A stretch of 64,000 nucleotides of DNA from Elusimicrobiota bacterium (GCA_036574205.1 JAINCQ010000037.1:32001-96000), one strand, 5' to 3'; numbered from the stretch's first letter, positions 54,569 to 64,000 are shown. Program-made: numbers and translations. The notes: generated from the sequence alone by a model not told the origin.

Positions 54569-54661
54569 ACTTACCTCTAAAAAGAACTATATCAATATAT
54601 ATTATTATACATTTTTTAATTCAAAAACTCTAAATTAATTAAATTTTACATCTAAGGGTTT

Positions 54662-56622
54662 CTAATGTTTTGTGCAACTTAATTTTATTTGATTTTTGAA
54701 GTTTTCAATTTCTTTCTGGTTATAAATTTGATAAAGCGATCTTTCGTCTATGGATATAATCCTTGCTTTTTCGCATATATTTCTTTTCTCTTTTTCGTTT
54801 TTTTCTCCATAAATATATATAAGCCCAAGATATGCGTTAATACAATAGGGGTCCTTTTTAATTAGAACTAAAAAATCTTTTTCAGCGTTAGTTTTGTCAT
54901 TTTCAATAAGATAAATCACAGCTCTATCGCTTAATAATCTTGAATCCTCGTTATTCTTAAGCTTTTGATTAAGATATAAAATGGCTTGTTTATAATTTTT
55001 TTCTGACATATACTTTAAAAATAATGGATCATCTTGCTTTTTATTGCATGAATTTGCGTATATTAATTTAAAATATTTTTTTTCGGTTTCTATGAATATT
55101 TTATTTTTTTCGGGTATATAATATATTTCAAATTCGTCAGATTTTGTAATAAAATTGGACTGAGCTATTATAAAATTGGCAATTTCAATGTAGCTTTTCA
55201 CTATCCTGTTATAAAAATCTGAAATATTTTTAGGGTGAATATAATATATTTTTTTACCTGAAATACTAATAGCATTATGTGAAACAATAGCAAGTTTTCC
55301 TTTTTCCTGTTTAAAATCCTCAAAGGAAAAAGAATTAATATTAGAGGTAAATTTTATTTCTTCAGCAGCTTCCTTATAGGGAAATATCAAAACTGTATCC
55401 TTTTCGTCTTTGATTCCATATGCAATTATTTTATCGAGTAGTGATCTATAATAGGCATTAGTAAAATAAGCGAATTTCATCTTTGAAAAAATGATTGGCG
55501 ATAAAAGGATAAGAACAAAGAAAGATTTGTATTTTATTTTTTTAAATATCTCATAAAAAGCCTGAGCAAAAACAATAAACAATATAGGTGATAAAGGAGC
55601 AATGTATCTTTCTTCTAAATGATATATATTTGAAGGATAAAAAATATAAGTTAGTGTCATAATAATAGATGAAAAAATAAGAATGATTTCTTCTTTTTTA
55701 AATTTTAAAACACACCCCTTGATGATTATAAATAATAATACAACAATTTCAAAAGGAAGAAAAAATATCTGAAATAAATCTATAAATCTGTTTTTAACAT
55801 ATATGATATACTGTGGAAAGTTAGAAATTATTTCCCAGTAACCAAGATTTTTCCCCCTCCCATAAAAATGCAGAATGGCCGGTGATAGAATAATTATAAT
55901 TACAATAAAAATCCCTGTTTCAAATTTTGAAAAATCATTATGTATGTTTTTTATTGAGACTACTGTGTATAATATTACAGGCAAAGCATAGATTACAAAT
56001 TCAGTTCTAAAAAGAGAAGCTAAAATTATTGAACTCAAACAGAATATAAGAGAAGAAATTTTGTTATTTGAGATGAATAAACTTATGCTGAAAAGTATTA
56101 GAGAGTTTATCATAGTTGCAAAAGAAACCATTCCTTTATGATATAAAAAATATCCAAAAAAAAATTTTGAAGAAATATAGAAAACGATTGCAAGAAAACC
56201 TATCTCTGTCTTTTTATAAATTAATCTGGAACTCTCAAAAATCAGGAAAAGAGAAATAAAACCACAAGATATACTTATAAACGTTGCTACTGAAGTTGAA
56301 TTCCCAAAAATATTTTGAAAAAAACTGCATTAACATATGGATATATTATGCCATGCCTGTGATAAGTAAAAAAATCCTTTAAATTTCCGCTTGCCAGTAA
56401 ATTTGCCATATTCAGCTCTTCAAAATCATCTGAAATGCCTATAAATTTAAGCCTTAAAATAAAAGATAAGAGGATTAAAATAGCGAATAAAACAATCGTG
56501 GCTATTAAATATTTCTTATCATCATATCCTCTAAAAATCTTATTTTTGTTTGTGATAGAAAATAAAGAAAACAGATATATTATTATAAATAGGGTTATGC
56601 TTATAACGTAAAAAAATTCCAT
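54662..56622 (-). pseudogene. GT-C/ArnT-like polytopic glycosyltransferase with C-terminal TPR, split by one frameshift near 56320
   Basis: SDDFEE and HGIIYP in the first part; the -1 frame (FGNSTSVATF...HKGMVSF) runs without a stop into ORF 54662-56131, which has R.E and ERY motifs and a TPR tail. Confidence 0.7.
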
Positions 56623-56623
56623 C

Positions 56624-57300
56624 TTATCTTTTTTTCCCAACTATTAGTATAGTGGTAGTATTATCAAGCTTTGAGATTTCACTAAAAATTTCTTTGCCTT
56701 TATAGCTTTTAAGAAATTCTCCATCTGAAACATAACTTTTTATTTTATAAAATCTAAAGTCTTTCCCATATATTTGTTTTATTCTTTTTATATGTTCTCT
56801 TTTTAAAAAATTTGGATAGAATATCAGTAAGTGATTTGATTGCGCTTTCTTAGCTAAAGCGTATATGTTTTTAGGTTCAAATATTGGGTAATATCTCTTG
56901 TGACAATCTTTAATTCCCTTAAAATCTTATCTATTAAAAAATCAAAACTTGAAACTGATGGTTCAACTATTACGCTGGCAACTCTTGAAAATTTCCAGAA
57001 TATCTTTTCAACTATGGAATTTAAAAATAGAGGATTTCCGCTTGTCAGAAAAACAATGTTTTTATATTTTTTTAAGTTTTTTTTAATTGTTAAATAAATA
57101 CTTTTAATAAGAGATTTTTCATCAAACTCTTTTTTTTCGGGAAGAATGAATTTTTTGGGATTTAACCATAAGAAATCTTTTTCTTCCGCCACATCACTTA
57201 TAACAATATCAGCTTGTTTTATTATCTCTTCAGTTTTATATGAAATATTAAATGGATTTAAGCCAAAAGAGCATATAAAAAGCTTTTTTTTTACTTCCAT
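56624..57300 (-). pseudogene. Tetrapyrrole (corrin/porphyrin) methylase-like protein, frameshifted near 56900
   Basis: FLTSGNPLFLN and EPSVSSFD motifs; the -1 frame continues YYPIFEPK...TTTILIVGKKR* and ends just before ATG 56622. Confidence 0.72.
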
Positions 57301-57993
57301 TTATTTGCTTTCTAAAATCTCTGTGGATATAATATAATCCAATTTTGGAAAATTCTCTTTTAAATATTTATTTCCTTCAGACTGGATATGCGCCTGAGAT
57401 GGTCCTCTGCCGTATGGCTCTCCTTCTCCGTAGCCGGAATATAGGTTATCTGCTACTTCCATACCATCAATTACTTTTGCAAATGGAGAAAATCCAATAG
57501 AATCTAACCTTGAATTATCTTTAAAATTTATGAAAAGTTGTGTAGTTCTTGTATTTGCTCCAGCTGTTGCAAAGGATATTGTTCCCCTTGTGTTTGAAAG
57601 TTTTACAGGATCATCTTCTATGGTGGCATTTAACCATTTTTCTGAAACTTTTGGATCAGGGTTTATTCCAAATTGCGCCACAAAATCAGGTATTACCCTG
57701 AAGAAAGCCGCGTCATTATAAAAACCGTTTTTAACAAGGTTGTAAAACCTATCAACCCCTTTTGGCGCCCATTCTCTTTTAACTTCTACTACAAAAACGC
57801 CTTTTGTTGTAGTGAATCTTACTTTAAAGGCATCAGGGGCTGTTTCATTCATTGTTTGCGGATTTAATAATTTTTCCATATTCACTCCATTTAATTTATA
57901 ATTTTCACTTTCAATTTTTATAATGCTTTTTTCTTTATATTCTTTGCAGGCAAAAAAAGATAATATTAAAACAGCGATTGCTATTTTTCTCAT
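57301..57993 (-). CDS. Cyclophilin-type PPIase, probable lipoprotein
   Basis: FFRVIPDFVAQFG, RGTISFA, RTTQLFIN; FFAC lipobox. Confidence 0.93.
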   Translation of the reverse strand: MRKIAIAVLILSFFACKEYKEKSIIKIESENYKLNGVNMEKLLNPQTMNETAPDAFKVRFTTTKGVFVVEVKREWAPKGVDRFYNLVKNGFYNDAAFFRVIPDFVAQFGINPDPKVSEKWLNATIEDDPVKLSNTRGTISFATAGANTRTTQLFINFKDNSRLDSIGFSPFAKVIDGMEVADNLYSGYGEGEPYGRGPSQAHIQSEGNKYLKENFPKLDYIISTEILESK

Positions 57994-59274: not shown

Positions 59275-59342
59275 TTTGATATAATTTTTATTGATGAAAT
59301 CAATAAGATTTGATATAATTTTTATTGATGAGATCAATAAGG
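59275..59342 (+). promoter_or_regulatory. 34-bp tandem duplication containing an extended -10 box, a palindrome and the start codon
   Basis: TTTGATATAATTTTTATTGATGAAATCAATAAGA / TTTGATATAATTTTTATTGATGAGATCAATAAGG (32 of 34 identical). Confidence 0.85.
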
Positions 59343-61796
59343 ATAGCTTTTTTTGGAAAAGGTGGAATAGGAAAAACGACTATAGCCGCAAATTTTTCTG
59401 CATATATTGCAAGTCTCGGCAAAAAGGTTCTTGTAGTTGGTTGTGATCCCAAAATGGATAGTACAAAGCTACTTATGGGAAAAGAATTCATATCTCCCTT
59501 TATGGAGAAAATGAATCCTCACTCTACAAAAAACGATATAATTTCTAATATATATAAATCTCCGATTATTAAAAATCTTGATTGTATTGAGGTCGGTGGT
59601 CCAAAGCCCGGGGTAGGTTGTGCTGGTGTAGGGATAGGTATGATGATAGATATGCTTGGCAAATATAGTATAGCTGATGAATATGATTTTGTTATTTTTG
59701 ATGTGCTTGGAGATATAGTATGTGGTGGTTTCGCAGGTCCTTTAAGAAGTGGGTTTGCTGATATTATGATTATAGTAACATCTGATGAAATTTCTTCACT
59801 TTATGCTGCAAATAGACTTATCAGTATGGCTCAAAAGTATAAAGAAAATGGTATAAAAAGAGTTTGTTTGATAGCTAATTTAAAAGAGGGAGGGGATGTA
59901 AAAAAAATTACAGCTTTCTCAGAGCTTTGCAATGTTGATGTAATATCAACAATAAATTATGATATTAAAGTAAGGACACTTTCCGATAAAAATAAACTTG
60001 CGGTATTTTTCTTAAAGGAGAGCGGATTTTATCGCGAAATTAAAAGAATTTACAATGAGGTATCTAATAGAAAAATAAAAAATATTGATTTCAAATCCCT
60101 TGATTCCTCTACTTTTACAGAACTTTCTATTAATAATTTTGAAGTTTTAAGCAATAAAGTTCATCAGTTAAAAGAAAACTTTTTTAATTATTCATCTATT
60201 GATGAGGTGGTGAAAAAAAATAAAATATCTTTTCGTGGAATTTATGCTGAAGGTCAACTATTGTTTTCATTCAATTATGGCTTTCAAAAAATAAGCTTTA
60301 TCATTATGTCCTATTCAGTTAGCAAAGGTAAATTAGATTATAAAGACTGGTTTATCTGCTTTTCCCCTGGAACACCATATAATCAACAGATAAGATTTTC
60401 AGAAAAACTTAATGAGATCAAAAAATCCTTCTCAAATTTTAAATATGAAGAAATAGAAAAACATTTTATTGGTAACAAAATGCATTTCAGGAAAAATCTG
60501 GAAAAGGATAATATTTCAGTGAAGATTATCTCATCAAGACCGTTAACAGTCGGCGAAAAATGGCATAAGTTTATATATACTGAGGGCTTTACTAAGATAT
60601 TTATTCCTCCGGGAGTAGTTATTATAGAACATGGAGATATAGAATGTAAATTTAGCGATGGCGTTGGAGGTAATCTTGGAATGTTTTGTAAAAAAGACAT
60701 TCAGTTTCCTTCTATGCCAAAATGGATGGTAAGGATATTGAATGATGAGATAGATGATAACGATATTATATATGGCGATGAAGAGAAGATTAAATCCTGT
60801 ATTAAGACAGTTCCTGGGTTTAGAAAAAAAGGACTTATAGAGATATATAACTGTTGTACCCCTCTGCTAACTGCTGCGGACAAAAGTTCAATTTCAAAAC
60901 TTAAATCTGTTTATATGGAAAATCTTAATAGCTTTAATGAAAATACTTCTTATGAAAAAATAGAAAAGCGTATAAAATATATGTTAGATAGGATAAAAAT
61001 TATAGATAAAAAAGATAGATATGATTTTAATTTTATAAATTTTAATTTTAATGATGAAATTTCCAAATATCTTAAAAGTGCGAAAGTAAGATTTATCGAG
61101 ACTGGAGAACATACTGATGAATTCGTTTTTTATAGCGCTATTAAAGGCTCAAAATGGCAAATATTATTTAATGATGATCTGGTTTTAAAAGGATGTTTTG
61201 AAAAAGCTGGAATTAATTATAAAATTTTTCCCCCTCCTTTCGGTTTAAAAAATAGTATTAATTTGTTAAAGAATTTAAGTTTATTATCTGATAGAAATAT
61301 TATGGATTTTGTTACGGCTGAAAAAGAAATTATAAAGGAGTTGTTTAGTTTAAAAAAAGATAATAAGAATATTAAAATAGGCATAATAATTAATGTTAAT
61401 GAACTTCAAGCTTTTTTAGTAAATAAGATAGGAAAGGAAATACCAATTTTTGATTTTTTATCTGAAGCTGGTTTTGATATAAATATGTTTTTATATTTAG
61501 ACCAAAGTAAATCTTCGGATATTTTAAAGTTACCTAGAAAAGAAAATCTTAAGATAATATTTTTTAAAGATCCTAAAGAACTTTCATCCGTGCTTTTGAA
61601 AAGTAAAGTTAGGCTTGTTTATTCTGATGTAAGAACGGATAGGAGACTTATAGAACTTGGTATAACTCCATTTTCGGAGGATATTTTTGAAATGGGTATT
61701 GAGGGTTTTTTTGAAACAATAAAAAGGATAAGAAGGCTTAATGAGTGGAAGTTTTATGAAAAATACGCTGGATATAAATATAAAGGAAAGAACTGA
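59328..61796 (+). CDS. Nitrogenase-like fusion: NifH/BchL-type Fe protein + linker + divergent NifD-like component 1 subunit
   Basis: GKGGIGKTT, GCDPK.DST, GGPKPGVGCAG, DVLGDIVCGGFA; later HGDIEC, DIIYGDEEKI, CCTPLLTAAD, FEMGIEGF. Confidence 0.88.
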   Translation: MRSIRIAFFGKGGIGKTTIAANFSAYIASLGKKVLVVGCDPKMDSTKLLMGKEFISPFMEKMNPHSTKNDIISNIYKSPIIKNLDCIEVGGPKPGVGCAGVGIGMMIDMLGKYSIADEYDFVIFDVLGDIVCGGFAGPLRSGFADIMIIVTSDEISSLYAANRLISMAQKYKENGIKRVCLIANLKEGGDVKKITAFSELCNVDVISTINYDIKVRTLSDKNKLAVFFLKESGFYREIKRIYNEVSNRKIKNIDFKSLDSSTFTELSINNFEVLSNKVHQLKENFFNYSSIDEVVKKNKISFRGIYAEGQLLFSFNYGFQKISFIIMSYSVSKGKLDYKDWFICFSPGTPYNQQIRFSEKLNEIKKSFSNFKYEEIEKHFIGNKMHFRKNLEKDNISVKIISSRPLTVGEKWHKFIYTEGFTKIFIPPGVVIIEHGDIECKFSDGVGGNLGMFCKKDIQFPSMPKWMVRILNDEIDDNDIIYGDEEKIKSCIKTVPGFRKKGLIEIYNCCTPLLTAADKSSISKLKSVYMENLNSFNENTSYEKIEKRIKYMLDRIKIIDKKDRYDFNFINFNFNDEISKYLKSAKVRFIETGEHTDEFVFYSAIKGSKWQILFNDDLVLKGCFEKAGINYKIFPPPFGLKNSINLLKNLSLLSDRNIMDFVTAEKEIIKELFSLKKDNKNIKIGIIINVNELQAFLVNKIGKEIPIFDFLSEAGFDINMFLYLDQSKSSDILKLPRKENLKIIFFKDPKELSSVLLKSKVRLVYSDVRTDRRLIELGITPFSEDIFEMGIEGFFETIKRIRRLNEWKFYEKYAGYKYKGKN

Positions 61797-63027
61797 AAAC
61801 TCAAGCATGCTTCCATTTTTACTCGGAGTTATGCTTGGAATTAATTCTTTTGACGATGTTCTTTTAATAGTTGACGGGCTTAATTGTATTATGTCAAGGG
61901 TTGAGTACATATTTGGTAATCACGATTTATATTCTACGCTTCTTTTGCCATCAGGTAAACACAGAATAACATACACTATGAATGGTCCATTTACTACAGC
62001 AAATTCCGAAGAAAGGCTTATCTCAATTATAAAAAAAAATCTAGAAGATAGAAAATATTCTGCTATTTTTATTACGTCTTTGCCATTTCAAAAATTGATG
62101 AGACCTGATTATGAAAGAATCATAAAAAGTATAAAATCAGATATCCCTATTATATACATTGATCAGAAAAAGACTGATGATGATTGGATTGAAGGATATT
62201 CTGCATTTTTATCCTCTATTATAAGTTATATATTTTCAAAAGGAAGTAAGAAAACTAAAAGAAAAAATACTATTGCTATCCTTGGTAATATGTATGACAG
62301 AAATGAATATGATACAAAGGCTAATATAAGTGAGATTTGCAGATTGGTTGATATATGCGGCTATGAGCCGATTTATGTATTTCCTTCTGGCGGAAGTTTT
62401 ATTGATGTATGGAAAATTATGGAAGCTGAACATATAGTTGTTCTTCCATATATTAAAGACTTGCTTCCTCAAATTAGCAAAAGCACATCTGCAAAAGTTT
62501 ATGAAATGTGTTTGCCTTTAGGAATAGAAGCCTCCATAAGATGGGTTTACGAATTAAATAAAAAACATGTTAAGTTCGCCCAAAAAATAGCCTTAGAAAG
62601 CATGGAAAGAGTAATGCCAATTATAAGTGTTATGTCTGGGAAAAATATTGTTTATTTTGGAGAACCATATATGCTTGATTCACTTTCTTATTTTTTTGAT
62701 GATCTTAATATTTCAGTGGAATCTGCATTTTTAAATACAAACCCTAAGAAAATTGATAATATAAGAATATTTAAAAGACTTTTGTTTAATTATGATATAA
62801 ATAAAGTAGATAGAGAGTTGGGAAAAATTATAGATGAAAAGCATATTAATCTTATTGTTGGCAATTGCTTTTCAAAGAAGCTTGTGTCTGGAAAAAATAT
62901 TCCTTTCCTTGAATTTGGTTTCCCATCATATGGATTTCATTGCCTTTCTGATCAACCTTATTTTGGATTTGAGGGTTTTGTATCATTTGCAAATAGAATT
63001 GCAAACTCCATACTTTCAACAATTTGA
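61741..63027 (+). CDS. Nitrogenase component 1-type oxidoreductase subunit (NifK/BchB-like)
   Basis: LIVDGLNC, PLGIEASIRW, FLEFGFPSY.H....PYFGFEG...ANRI. Confidence 0.85.
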   Translation: MSGSFMKNTLDINIKERTENSSMLPFLLGVMLGINSFDDVLLIVDGLNCIMSRVEYIFGNHDLYSTLLLPSGKHRITYTMNGPFTTANSEERLISIIKKNLEDRKYSAIFITSLPFQKLMRPDYERIIKSIKSDIPIIYIDQKKTDDDWIEGYSAFLSSIISYIFSKGSKKTKRKNTIAILGNMYDRNEYDTKANISEICRLVDICGYEPIYVFPSGGSFIDVWKIMEAEHIVVLPYIKDLLPQISKSTSAKVYEMCLPLGIEASIRWVYELNKKHVKFAQKIALESMERVMPIISVMSGKNIVYFGEPYMLDSLSYFFDDLNISVESAFLNTNPKKIDNIRIFKRLLFNYDINKVDRELGKIIDEKHINLIVGNCFSKKLVSGKNIPFLEFGFPSYGFHCLSDQPYFGFEGFVSFANRIANSILSTI

Positions 63028-63029
63028 AT

Positions 63030-63431
63030 ATGAAAATACTTTCCTGTATAACAGATATAGAAGAGATAAGATATCTTAAAAAAGCGGGGGCTGATGAGGT
63101 TAATATAGATGCATATGAAGAGATTTTTGAGAGCTTAAAAGTTCTTGTTAATTGTGGAATAGATTCCATGATAGTTTCTAATATTGGTTTTGCGTCTTTT
63201 TTAAATAAGGTATTCCCTTCTTTAAATATTCATTTGAGTTCAATAAACCCTGTTTTTAACTCTGAGGCTTTTTCTTTTTTAAGATCCAGAATAAGGTTTT
63301 CAAGGCTTATACTTCCAAACCAGCTGTCTGCTAAAGAAGCCCAAGGATTGGTAAGAACCTGCAAAAGTAAAAAAGTTGAAGCTAAAATATTTTTTCAAAT
63401 TTTTGGGTTGTCTATATATAATGCATTGTGA
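63030..63431 (+). pseudogene. U32 peptidase-family (Fe-S hydroxylase-like) remnant
   Basis: KAGADEV, GIDSMIVSNIG, IHLSS, RLILPNQLS; appears internally deleted after ADEV and stops at the Cys motif region. Confidence 0.7.
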
Positions 63432-64000
63432 TCTGTTAGTATCGTTTAAATATATGTCAAATATTCTTGTTATATATTCTTTTAAAAAACAAGCCTGAAG
63501 ATGTTCATAAAAAAATGGATATCCACCTTTTTTAAGCATTAATTCTGATGCCTTTATAAAATAAGGTATTGTATCTGAAACTTTAACTTTAATTTCATTT
63601 TTTGATAGCTTTGCCCTACCTATATATTGAAGAAATTGAATGATTATTAATTTCAACCCTATTTTAGAAAAGAAATTTACATATCCATCTATATATTTTT
63701 AATTAAGATCATTGACAATGAATATTGAAGATAAAGGTATCTTTGCTTCTATTATGTTGTTAACTGCCTTAATCATTGTTTTATAAGAATTTTTAAAACC
63801 TGTGAGAAACTCATATTCTTTTTCCCTGTAATCAGGAATATTTAGAGCAAGGGAATCAACCTGTATTTCGGAAACTATTTTTGTAAATTTTTCATCGGAA
63901 AAGGCAAGTCCATTTGTGAATATATGAATATAATATACTAATTTTTTTGCCAATAGCAATGTTTTGATAAAATCTTTGTGAATAGTTGGTTCTCCGTCGA
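63300..64000 (-). pseudogene. Radical SAM protein, 3' part, with an in-frame stop
   Basis: (D)GEPTIHKDF...IFTNG; ORFs 63699-63959 and 63300-63656 share a frame, separated by TAA in LN*KYIDGYVNFF; CxxxCxxC motif would lie outside the window. Confidence 0.72.

Follow-up and report, generated by a model that had tools for sequence, protein, structure and literature searches.

The 64,000-nucleotide window analysed here (G000:C31:32001-96000) comes from an Elusimicrobiota genome of 1.85 Mb that is 95.3% complete. It carries two overlapping genes, nflHD and nflK, which we assign by sequence to the Group VI nitrogen-fixation-like (NFL) reductases as a new Cys-poor member of that described family. 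In nflHD the NifH-like ATPase and the NifD-like subunit form one polypeptide with a folded domain between them. The pair lies beside a radical-SAM suite that, judged from its family scores, is an expanded His-Xaa-Ser (HXS) peptide-maturation system. The role that we favour for nflHD/nflK, at a little short of an even chance, is that of an ATP-driven tailoring reductase in a ribosomal peptide pathway. What is added here to the description of the family is a family-wide fusion with a middle domain, a minimal ligand set and a testable candidate substrate.

Domain Architecture of nflHD and nflK

An AlphaFold2 model of the nflHD protein was computed from a 72-row alignment and reached a mean predicted local distance difference test score (pLDDT) of 85.8. 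Residues are numbered on the 822-residue chain that starts from the ATG at 59328; a TTG one codon upstream (59325) gives 823 residues. Residues 3 to 271 of the model have the Fe-protein fold, as found with VIA-align to A. vinelandii 8tc3_B (Z 33.2, root-mean-square deviation (rmsd) 2.3, 263 residues aligned) and to BchL 6uyk_A (Z 30.1), and Pfam places Fer4_NifH at residues 6-267 with 204 bits. Residues 421 to 819 have a component-1 fold, best matched by MarD 9d9u_A (Z 17.8, rmsd 4.8, 333 residues aligned) and further by NifE (Z 15.4), AnfK (14.3) and ChlB (14.0); Pfam Oxidored_nitro is found at residues 430-770 with 36.1 bits (cut-off 28.6). These results bear out the C-terminal half as component-1-like, as a sequence-only reading of this DNA had proposed.

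Profile searches gave the same picture. With the family profile of the D-like part, alpha-type chains came first in the PDB: MarD (2.7e-13), NifD (5e-8), NifE (1e-5) and BchN (3e-4). By hhalign the D-like part matched the NifD profile built from nif loci with a probability of 97% (E 9e-11) and the NifK profile with one of 95.9%. The family profile was required for this, as a single-sequence PDB search with residues 269-823 gave no match; Foldseek with the whole nflHD model had only NifH chains in its listing. The second gene is NifK-like, with 125 bits on Pfam Oxidored_nitro, an hhalign probability of 99.1% for NifK against 88.3% for NifD, and NifK (6.9e-16) and BchB (1.3e-12) as PDB matches of its profile. 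Its start is probably Met6 at 61756, judged from relatives, and the overlap with nflHD is 41-56 nucleotides. The overlapping NifK-like gene after the fused open reading frame (ORF) had been seen before, and the ORF calls and the Oxidored_nitro score agree with it.

Across the whole genome, nflHD and nflK are the sole NifH/component-1 genes above the Pfam cut-off: no further PF00148 gene passes it, and nifB (TIGR01290) has no match in the 95.3%-complete assembly. The earlier observation that nifB, nifE and nifN are not nearby extends in this way to the genome.

Between the two large domains lies a middle domain (residues about 291-383), bounded by low-confidence stretches at 281-286 and 385-409. 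Its pLDDT is 80-94 in the full model and 91-96 in the core when the domain is folded alone, and D340, W341 and P347 are conserved in at least 90% of the 72-row alignment. The roughly 130 residues that had been described as an unassigned linker are present, but they are not a mere linker, since the model and the alignment show that they contain a conserved folded domain. No Pfam family matched it, and the best match in the fold search had a Z of only 5.4. A PDZ- or RRE-like peptide binder was tried as an identity and is not supported: PDZ chains appeared in the profile search at just E 1.4-2.2, Pfam gave nothing, and the leading fold matches, to KA1-type domains at Z 5.4 or less, were within noise. 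When the middle-domain profile was compared with longer proteins, the six matches, in a listing crowded by other candidates, were all fused forms.

An unfused Group-VI-type pair was seen in a Myxococcales metagenome-assembled genome (MAG) (L063:9911-12914), where a NifH-like ORF of 298 residues is followed by an ORF of 702 residues. In the latter the D-like domain is preceded by a 287-residue extension. The N-terminal 297 residues of this ORF showed no likeness to the middle domain (hhalign probability 0.4%), and because of this we claim the middle domain for the fused family only.

The H-D Fusion

The H-D fusion is a family trait and not an artefact. Among the best 120 listed homologues, 72 (own protein included) are full length, with 94-100% coverage and lengths of 773-889 residues, and the other 48 match the NifH part only. 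The named full-length homologues in this set are all from Elusimicrobia MAGs, and a contig of Elusimicrobia bacterium GWF2_62_30 (L008) carries a full-length HD homologue. Pfam annotation of the relatives' loci covered seven (L118-L124 of L118-L127), and in all seven a K-like ORF comes directly after a fused H-D ORF, in most cases overlapping it. Over positions 59300-63100 the comparison with a Logan contig of run X1 showed no differences and no gaps; run X1 may be the source sample, so that this is a second assembly and not independent DNA. We take the fusion as genuine because 72 of the best 120 listed homologues are full length and because the second assembly is identical. The sequence-only reading had proposed the fusion and named an assembly artefact as what could overturn it; that explanation is excluded by the same two results. 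The tethered electron donor that it described is likewise present, as the Fe-protein domain is in the same chain as the NifD-like domain.

Placement among Group VI NFL Proteins

A quick maximum-likelihood tree of 123 NifH-domain rows, built without rows for BchL, BchX, MarH or IsrH, placed 37 of the 38 rows of the fused family in one clade (SH-aLRT 99), with the nflHD sub-clade on a long branch (1.12). The fused clade is nested in a clade of 46 rows (SH-aLRT 100) with loci of Elusimicrobia and Myxococcota, the unfused Myxococcales pair included. This larger clade lies apart from the 37 NifH equivalogs, the four CfbC equivalogs and the other NFL H proteins. Domain trees had been suggested as a check of the first reading, and the one for the NifH domain leaves nflHD outside the NifH and CfbC equivalogs. 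We file the pair under Group VI because of this tree and because a homologue is carried by GWF2_62_30, which is named in the main text of Meheust et al. 2020 (bioRxiv 10.1101/765248) among the genomes with a Group VI cluster. The kinship with radical-SAM-linked Elusimicrobia paralogs, which the first reading had put forward, is in agreement with this homologue and with the separate NifH clade.

Against NCBIfam the NifH domain of nflHD scores 189.7 bits on both nifH (cut-off 394) and CfbC (402), 160.9 on BchL (345) and 148.1 on BchX (331). The component-1 scores are 36.6 on BchN (420), 30.4 on BchB (490) and 25 on nifK (427), with at most 16.5 on the nitrogenase alpha-subunit models. A true nitrogenase (Nif/Vnf/Anf) was rejected on scores below the equivalog cut-offs, absent ligands and the lack of a nifB match. 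Membership in DPOR/COR was rejected on BchL/X, BchN and BchB scores that are all under their cut-offs, and membership in CfbCD on the CfbC score and on the place of the CfbC equivalogs in another part of the tree. The folds, the motifs and the sub-cut-off scores fit the earlier proposal of an ATP-driven reductase of the nitrogenase superfamily that is not a nitrogenase.

The likeness to the described Group VI NflH/NflD/NflK proteins is extensive: a NifH protein with cluster Cys and ATP motifs, divergent D and K proteins without FeMo-co ligands and with most P-cluster Cys missing, no nifB, many radical-SAM neighbours, and a distribution in Elusimicrobia with Myxococcales relatives. The difference is in the chain. 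In the main texts of Meheust et al. and of the review PMC13474568 (Chem Rev 2026), H, D and K are treated as separate proteins, whereas nflHD and its full-length relatives, 72 of the best 120 listed, are one chain with a middle domain. The words "fused" and "fusion" in those two main texts concern other proteins only, and "fused" in PMC13753814 and PMC9447857 concerns NifB-NifX only. No literature on an H-D fusion or on a link between NFL and a peptide was found.

Conserved Cysteines and Cluster Ligands

The P-loop G10-K16, the switch residues D40, D125 and D129, and both C98 and C132 are invariant in 72/72 full-length homologues. The Arg of the GCAGRG motif is Val in nflHD, and the column holds T in 32, A in 26, V in 9, L in 3 and R in 2 of the 72 rows. 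In the NifD-like part, hhalign sets C510, within a C-P-x-G-L-I-G-D-D motif, on the third P-cluster Cys column of NifD, which we take to be A. vinelandii Cys154. D616 stands at the FeMo-co Cys column of the NifD profile, and F425 stands at the first P-cluster Cys column in the alignment to the NifK profile. The alignment of the D-like part to NifD stops short of the NifD His442 column. C440, present in 72/72 rows, is in an H-G-x3-C motif at a predicted strand-to-helix turn. The sole profile alignment that spans it, to NifK, sets it about 10 columns off the second Cys; from the motif and the predicted secondary structure it would fit as a second P-cluster-type Cys.

In nflK only C49 (DGLNC) lies near a NifK P-cluster Cys position, the second, and the third column is L114. 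C49 and H400-C401 are invariant in 8/8 aligned K-like proteins. H400 falls in the column where NifD has its FeMo-co histidine, presumably His442, an indication that the pocket in the K-like subunit may be in use.

The alignments and mappings agree closely with what had been read by eye from the sequence: intact Fe-protein motifs with both [4Fe-4S] Cys and an Arg-to-Val change, a D-like part without the first P-cluster Cys and without the FeMoco Cys, a K-like part that keeps one of three ligand Cys, and a reduced ligand set fit for a simple cluster as in the single-[4Fe-4S] members. Of the two D-like Cys that had been placed at the HG..C and C...GDD positions, the latter (C510) is confirmed by profile and the former (C440) is a probable assignment from motif and predicted secondary structure.

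Six Cys columns are usual in the HD chain of the family: 313 (56/72), 344 (61/72), 440 (72/72), 445 (48/72), 510 (72/72) and 805 (61/72), the first two of them within the middle domain. The nflHD sub-clade differs in having three of the six, since just C344, C440 and C510 are retained in nflHD and in P0002-P0004, the relatives nearest to it (41-49% identity); column 313 in nflHD is Phe. At about position 78 nflK has Tyr where the other seven of the eight aligned K-like proteins have Cys. The joint loss of four Cys in one lineage, a single evolutionary event, suggests a possible second, dispensable metal site. The minimal set of C344, C440 and C510 with C49 and H400-C401 of nflK would narrow the ligands of the essential cluster as against those of such a site.

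The Adjoining HXS-Type Operon

The features of the locus are collected in Table 1. A minus-strand operon, convergent to nflHD/nflK, runs beyond the window over L007 699-18420, which is contig C31 95,699-113,420 (L007 = C31:95001-114000). Its last gene, a radical-SAM ORF of 172 residues, is at the window edge and extends beyond it. Twelve of the 17 downstream ORFs are radical-SAM, one of the 12 being a B12-binding radical-SAM enzyme, and the other five are TP_methylase-like, PPDK_N/PEP-utiliser, Diphthami_syn_2 (Dph6-like) and two ORFs without a family. One ORF (L007:6977-8350, minus strand) is HxsB, with 461.2 bits against a curated cut-off of 370; a second operon ORF scores 315 bits on the same model, and another HxsB (510 bits) lies just upstream of the operon at C31:114709-116109. 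The best scores of other radical-SAM ORFs are below cut-off: HxsC 169 (267.9), HxsC4 146 and 142 (500), and, for two ORFs, a PapB-type SPASM maturase at 131 and 121 (340). HxsD was not among the family matches listed for the scanned ORFs, and no search was aimed at it.

Table 1: Features of the NFL locus and of the adjoining operon; positions are those of the window unless a contig or locus is given.
Feature	Position	Strand	Description
nflHD	59328..61796	+	822 residues from ATG; NifH-like, middle and NifD-like domains
NifH-fold ATPase domain	59334..60140	+	residues 3-271; P-loop, switch I/II, C98, C132
Middle domain	60198..60476	+	residues ~291-383; four strands, three helices
NifD-like component-1 domain	60588..61784	+	residues 421-819; invariant C440, C510
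nflK	61741..63027	+	NifK-like, 428 residues; invariant C49, H400-C401
U32-family ORF, truncated	63024..63431	+	135 residues; Pfam Peptidase_U32 53 bits
3' end of convergent HXS-type radical-SAM operon	63699..64000	-	Pfam Radical_SAM
TP_methylase-like ORF	56854..57300	-	148 residues; PF00590 29.6 bits at C31:88923-89258
HxsA4-type precursor ORF	L007:18100-18408 = C31:113097-113408	-	103 residues; near operon head

The precursor has a basic/hydrophobic leader, about 12 H-x-S repeats that are mostly Ser-His-Gly, and the C-terminal sequence SRGGWC. It scores 77.5 bits on NCBIfam HxsA4 NF038313 (cut-off 55), and the copy in the related genome G086 scores 90.9. The suite is identified as an expanded HXS peptide-maturation system, a family-level assignment, because HxsB is over its cut-off and an HxsA4-type precursor is present.

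In Pseudomonadota the four-gene HXS system, HxsABCD, was recently shown to defend against phages, and an SHRSS motif of its effector HxsA is modified by +8 Da (Nat Commun 2026, PMC13128918). The neighbouring operon resembles it in having HxsB, HxsC-like enzymes and a His-Xaa-Ser substrate, but it exceeds the four genes of the antiphage system, with 12 or more for radical-SAM enzymes besides further tailoring genes, and its substrate, unlike that of the antiphage system, is a peptide of about 100 residues with about 12 repeats. NFL is not mentioned in the abstract or in sections 9 and 10 of that paper.

Several other genes of the neighbourhood were looked at. The TP_methylase-like ORF within the window has a second counterpart in the operon (L007 1180-1839, 42 bits), so that the two flank the NFL locus; the ORF at 56854 might be a member of the NFL system. 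Both proteins match the N-terminal half of the family profile only. A Dph5-like identity was dropped, the sole solved match being CbiF at E 0.017. On BchE the B12-radical-SAM protein scores weakly (53 bits, cut-off 481). At L007:11648-13998 (minus strand) are the PPDK_N/PEP-utiliser gene, with weak PigC/RedH-type matches, and the gene of the Dph6-like ATP pyrophosphatase (65.8 bits, cut-off 197). The substrate of Dph6 is a modified histidine; by analogy, and as a loose hint, this gene may be relevant to a His-rich substrate. The two ORFs without a family encode a 400-residue polytopic membrane protein with a soluble C-terminal part (L007:4935-6140, minus strand) and a 177-residue protein, rich in Cys and with a Lys/Glu-rich tail, whose gene lies immediately 5' of the precursor (L007:18398-18934, minus strand).

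Recurrence of NFL with HXS Genes

An ORF with a leader and (SHG)n repeats is found near Group VI genes in three other loci, those of G086 (L118), G218 (L122) and the Myxococcales MAG L063. In G218 one strand carries, in this order, TP_methylase-like, K-like, HD, HxsB and precursor genes, and in L063 the precursor ORF is 1.4 kb downstream of the unfused pair. By Pfam, radical-SAM genes are present in 6 of the 7 relatives' NFL loci.

The pairing was then counted across 401 evenly sampled genomes from this phylum, with co-occurrence read off the result tables. The D-like part is in 36 of them (15/46 of family f1, 2/10 of f6 and 18/48 of f8, plus the host genome itself). HxsB is in 112, with 88 above the cut-off, and the precursor profile matches in 92, where relatives with the same leader are typically beside HxsB. 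All NFL-positive genomes except G152, that is 35 of the 36, have both HxsB and the precursor. A precursor match lies on the same contig within 30 kb of NFL in 17/36, a proportion much larger than the few per cent to be expected of a 60-kb span in a genome of 2-4 Mb, relatedness among the genomes inflating the figure; in G302 HxsB is within about 10 kb of NFL.

Local History of the Locus

DNA comparison showed that the flanks of the locus are shared with the same-genus genomes, with ligA-nusB, a PPIase gene, an M20 peptidase gene and the first radical-SAM gene in common. Between the M20 and radical-SAM genes the sister genome G060 has a TP_methylase-like gene, a U32 gene of 311 residues, two ORFs without a family and a second U32 gene, and no NFL. 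The U32 ORF after nflK has 135 residues against 303-316 in relatives and corresponds to residues 1-181 of a 316-residue relative; full-length U32 genes are near NFL in 4 of the 7 relatives' loci and at the equivalent place in the sister genomes. The radical-SAM ORF at the window end has 172 residues against 339 in G060, and the DNA match to G060 (63450-63982) continues about 250 nucleotides beyond its stop. Both ORFs, the U32 one and the radical-SAM one, appear to be left over from a rearrangement at the HXS cluster's edge. Because the sister genomes have no NFL here and both ORFs are cut, this comparison of sequences identifies the NFL pair as gained or swapped in at that edge with collateral damage.

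For 54606-57316 of the window no counterpart exists in the DNA of the two same-genus genomes, in which the ligA-nusB and PPIase genes are contiguous. This stretch, an insertion in the host or a deletion in the same-genus genomes, holds a membrane/TPR-like ORF of 489 residues, an ORF of 117 residues and the 148-residue TP_methylase-like ORF.

Proposed Mechanism and Known Reductases

From the folds, the motifs, the family membership, the neighbourhood and its recurrence we infer an oligomer, a set of cluster-binding residues and a substrate. The NifH domains at the N-termini of two HD chains would dimerise, with C98 and C132 coordinating one [4Fe-4S] cluster between them. Binding and hydrolysis of MgATP would power the transfer of single electrons to a simple Fe-S cluster located where the NifD-like domain and the NifK-like subunit meet. 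Candidate ligands of that cluster are C440, C510 and C49 of nflK, with C344, C401 of nflK or a non-Cys residue as the fourth. From there the electrons would go on to a bound organic substrate, with no FeMo-co-type cofactor. The likeliest substrate would be the radical-SAM-modified (Ser-His-Gly)n HxsA4-type peptide from the adjoining operon, or a product released from it. A broader claim we hold more tentatively, as possible but doubtful: that Group VI enzymes are not tetrapyrrole reductases and would be the first in the nitrogenase superfamily whose substrate is a ribosomal peptide. Here a very-low-potential reduction on cross-linked HxsA4 repeats, for example of an imidazole-derived or other conjugated ring, would help to make a peptide-derived cofactor or a metal-binding product. 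The role of the fusion and of the middle domain would be to keep the reductase attached to a polymer of repeats.

Three known systems are close to this scheme. DPOR and COR are ATP-driven NifH-type reductases with a single inter-subunit [4Fe-4S] cluster and no complex cofactor. The NFL family profiles find BchB and BchN, and the fold search finds BchL, but nflHD differs in its fused reductase and in lacking the first of the three N-type Cys, and the host has no tetrapyrrole pathway that was found. CfbC/CfbD is likewise a simple-cluster NFL system, and the NifH domain scores equally on CfbC and NifH. CfbD is not known to need a K-type partner, whereas a K-like gene accompanies nflHD, and the CfbC equivalogs are in the other half of the tree. 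Among solved structures, MarHDK (PDB 9d9u, 9fmg) is the one that the D-like domain matches best, in the profile search as well as in the fold search. It differs in that MAR uses cofactors of the P-cluster and L-cluster type and needs MarB or NifB (PMC13474568, main text), whereas the cofactor ligands are absent from nflHD/nflK and nifB was not found in the host genome.

Alternative Explanations

Several observations weigh against a peptide-tailoring role. Group VI is wholly uncharacterised, with no biochemical data for any member, according to the main text of PMC13474568. HXS is far commoner than NFL among the 401 genomes (precursor 92 and HxsB 112 against 36), is near-universal in the three NFL-holding families, where co-presence is uninformative, and is retained as a cluster without NFL by both same-genus genomes; related genomes are, in addition, not independent observations. 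The NFL pair of G335 (L119) stands amid housekeeping genes, with no radical-SAM gene in its 15-kb locus. In the host, nflHD/nflK are convergent to the HXS operon and not inside it, and the adjacency could follow from the rearrangement. To these are added two TP_methylase-family ORFs that flank the locus, one of which type also heads the G218 operon, and the B12-radical-SAM enzyme with its weak BchE match, all of which would also fit a tetrapyrrole-like substrate.

In the tetrapyrrole explanation a scavenged tetrapyrrole would have a C=C bond reduced by Group VI NFL to give a new cofactor, in parallel with DPOR, COR and CfbCD, and the radical-SAM, B12-radical-SAM and TP_methylase-like genes would tailor the macrocycle. 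A tetrapyrrole-type cofactor role was proposed in the main text of Meheust et al. (10.1101/765248) from the tree position of Group VI beside Groups IV/V and from neighbouring proteins fused to B12-binding and HemN_C domains, and it is repeated in that of PMC13474568. The reduced Cys set, like that of single-[4Fe-4S] enzymes, also agrees with it. We consider this explanation unlikely. Peptide maturases give the highest scores for the operon's radical-SAM genes, with HxsB above its cut-off in one case, and a precursor gene is there; the TP_methylase-like proteins match half of their profile, with CbiF as the best solved relative at E 0.017. In addition, neither ALAD/HemB (PF00490) nor PBG deaminase/HemC (PF01379) was found in the 95.3%-complete genome, the controls matching in 11 of 14 genomes. 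We prefer a peptide to a tetrapyrrole because the HXS system with its precursor adjoins the pair and because ALAD and PBG deaminase were not found, so that the tetrapyrrole substrate mentioned in the sequence-only reading is now the less supported of the two.

No more probable, in our estimate, is the reduction of some other small molecule, for example a sulfur compound as in MAR and ISR, that has nothing to do with the neighbours, the place of the genes being explained by a variable region. MarD is the closest solved relative of the D-like domain, the G335 pair is among housekeeping genes, and the sister genomes differ exactly at the NFL spot, as this explanation would have it. A MAR-type enzyme, however, needs a cluster made by NifB or MarB, and here nifB was not found and the FeMo-co Cys column is Asp. 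The precursor is within 30 kb in more genomes than expected, even if relatedness inflates the number, and the NFL-HXS pairing occurs in another phylum too, in L063. We regard it as quite improbable that the pair has no present role in the host and is a passenger, either newly acquired or in decay. NFL is absent from both same-genus genomes, the U32 and radical-SAM ORFs next to the pair are cut short, three Cys kept by 48-61 of the 72 relatives are lost, and the NifH branch is long (1.12). The reading frames are nevertheless intact over 822 and 428 codons, all family-invariant motifs are retained, and the Cys pattern is common to P0002-P0004 and so has been maintained through divergence.

The functions of NFL proteins are, per the main text of the review PMC13474568, the main open problem of the field. 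The peptide-tailoring role, if the peptide link is true, would widen the chemistry both of the nitrogenase superfamily and of ribosomal peptide natural products. The HxsA4 peptide with its maturases gives a concrete candidate substrate for Group VI, and the host locus, with a single NFL set in a small genome, is a compact case for study.

Stoichiometry and Other Single-Chain Forms

In nitrogenase and DPOR there is one H2 dimer per D/K half. A fusion fixes H:D at 1:1, and an (HD)2K2 assembly could form just one H2 dimer, which would mean half-sites working or a higher-order assembly. A natural 1:1 tether of reductase and catalytic subunit bears on whether NFL components must dissociate during turnover.

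Other single chains with Fer4_NifH and Oxidored_nitro were found in Thermoplasmatota (699-717 residues), Methanosarcina (797) and Clostridia (727-742), in loci L013, L014, L024, L027, L035, L038, L045 and L052. They differ from nflHD in having about 30-110 residues between the domains and strong Oxidored_nitro scores of 178-265 bits. Their NifH domains, CfbC-like and below the cut-off, form a separate clade (SH-aLRT 99), and because of this clade they point to an independent fusion event in another NFL group, as far as sequence can tell.

Public metagenomes also hold NifH-NifH-component-1 chains of about 1100 residues (P0061, P0067), and these tandem H-H-D chains would fit the stoichiometric pressure described above. 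NifH-NifH chains of about 585 residues without component-1 (P0111, P0116) occur as well. A single-chain Fe-protein "dimer" of this kind would be of interest for nitrogenase engineering; the tandem-NifH chains that carry a name are from Myxococcales, Binatia and Thermodesulfobacteriota.

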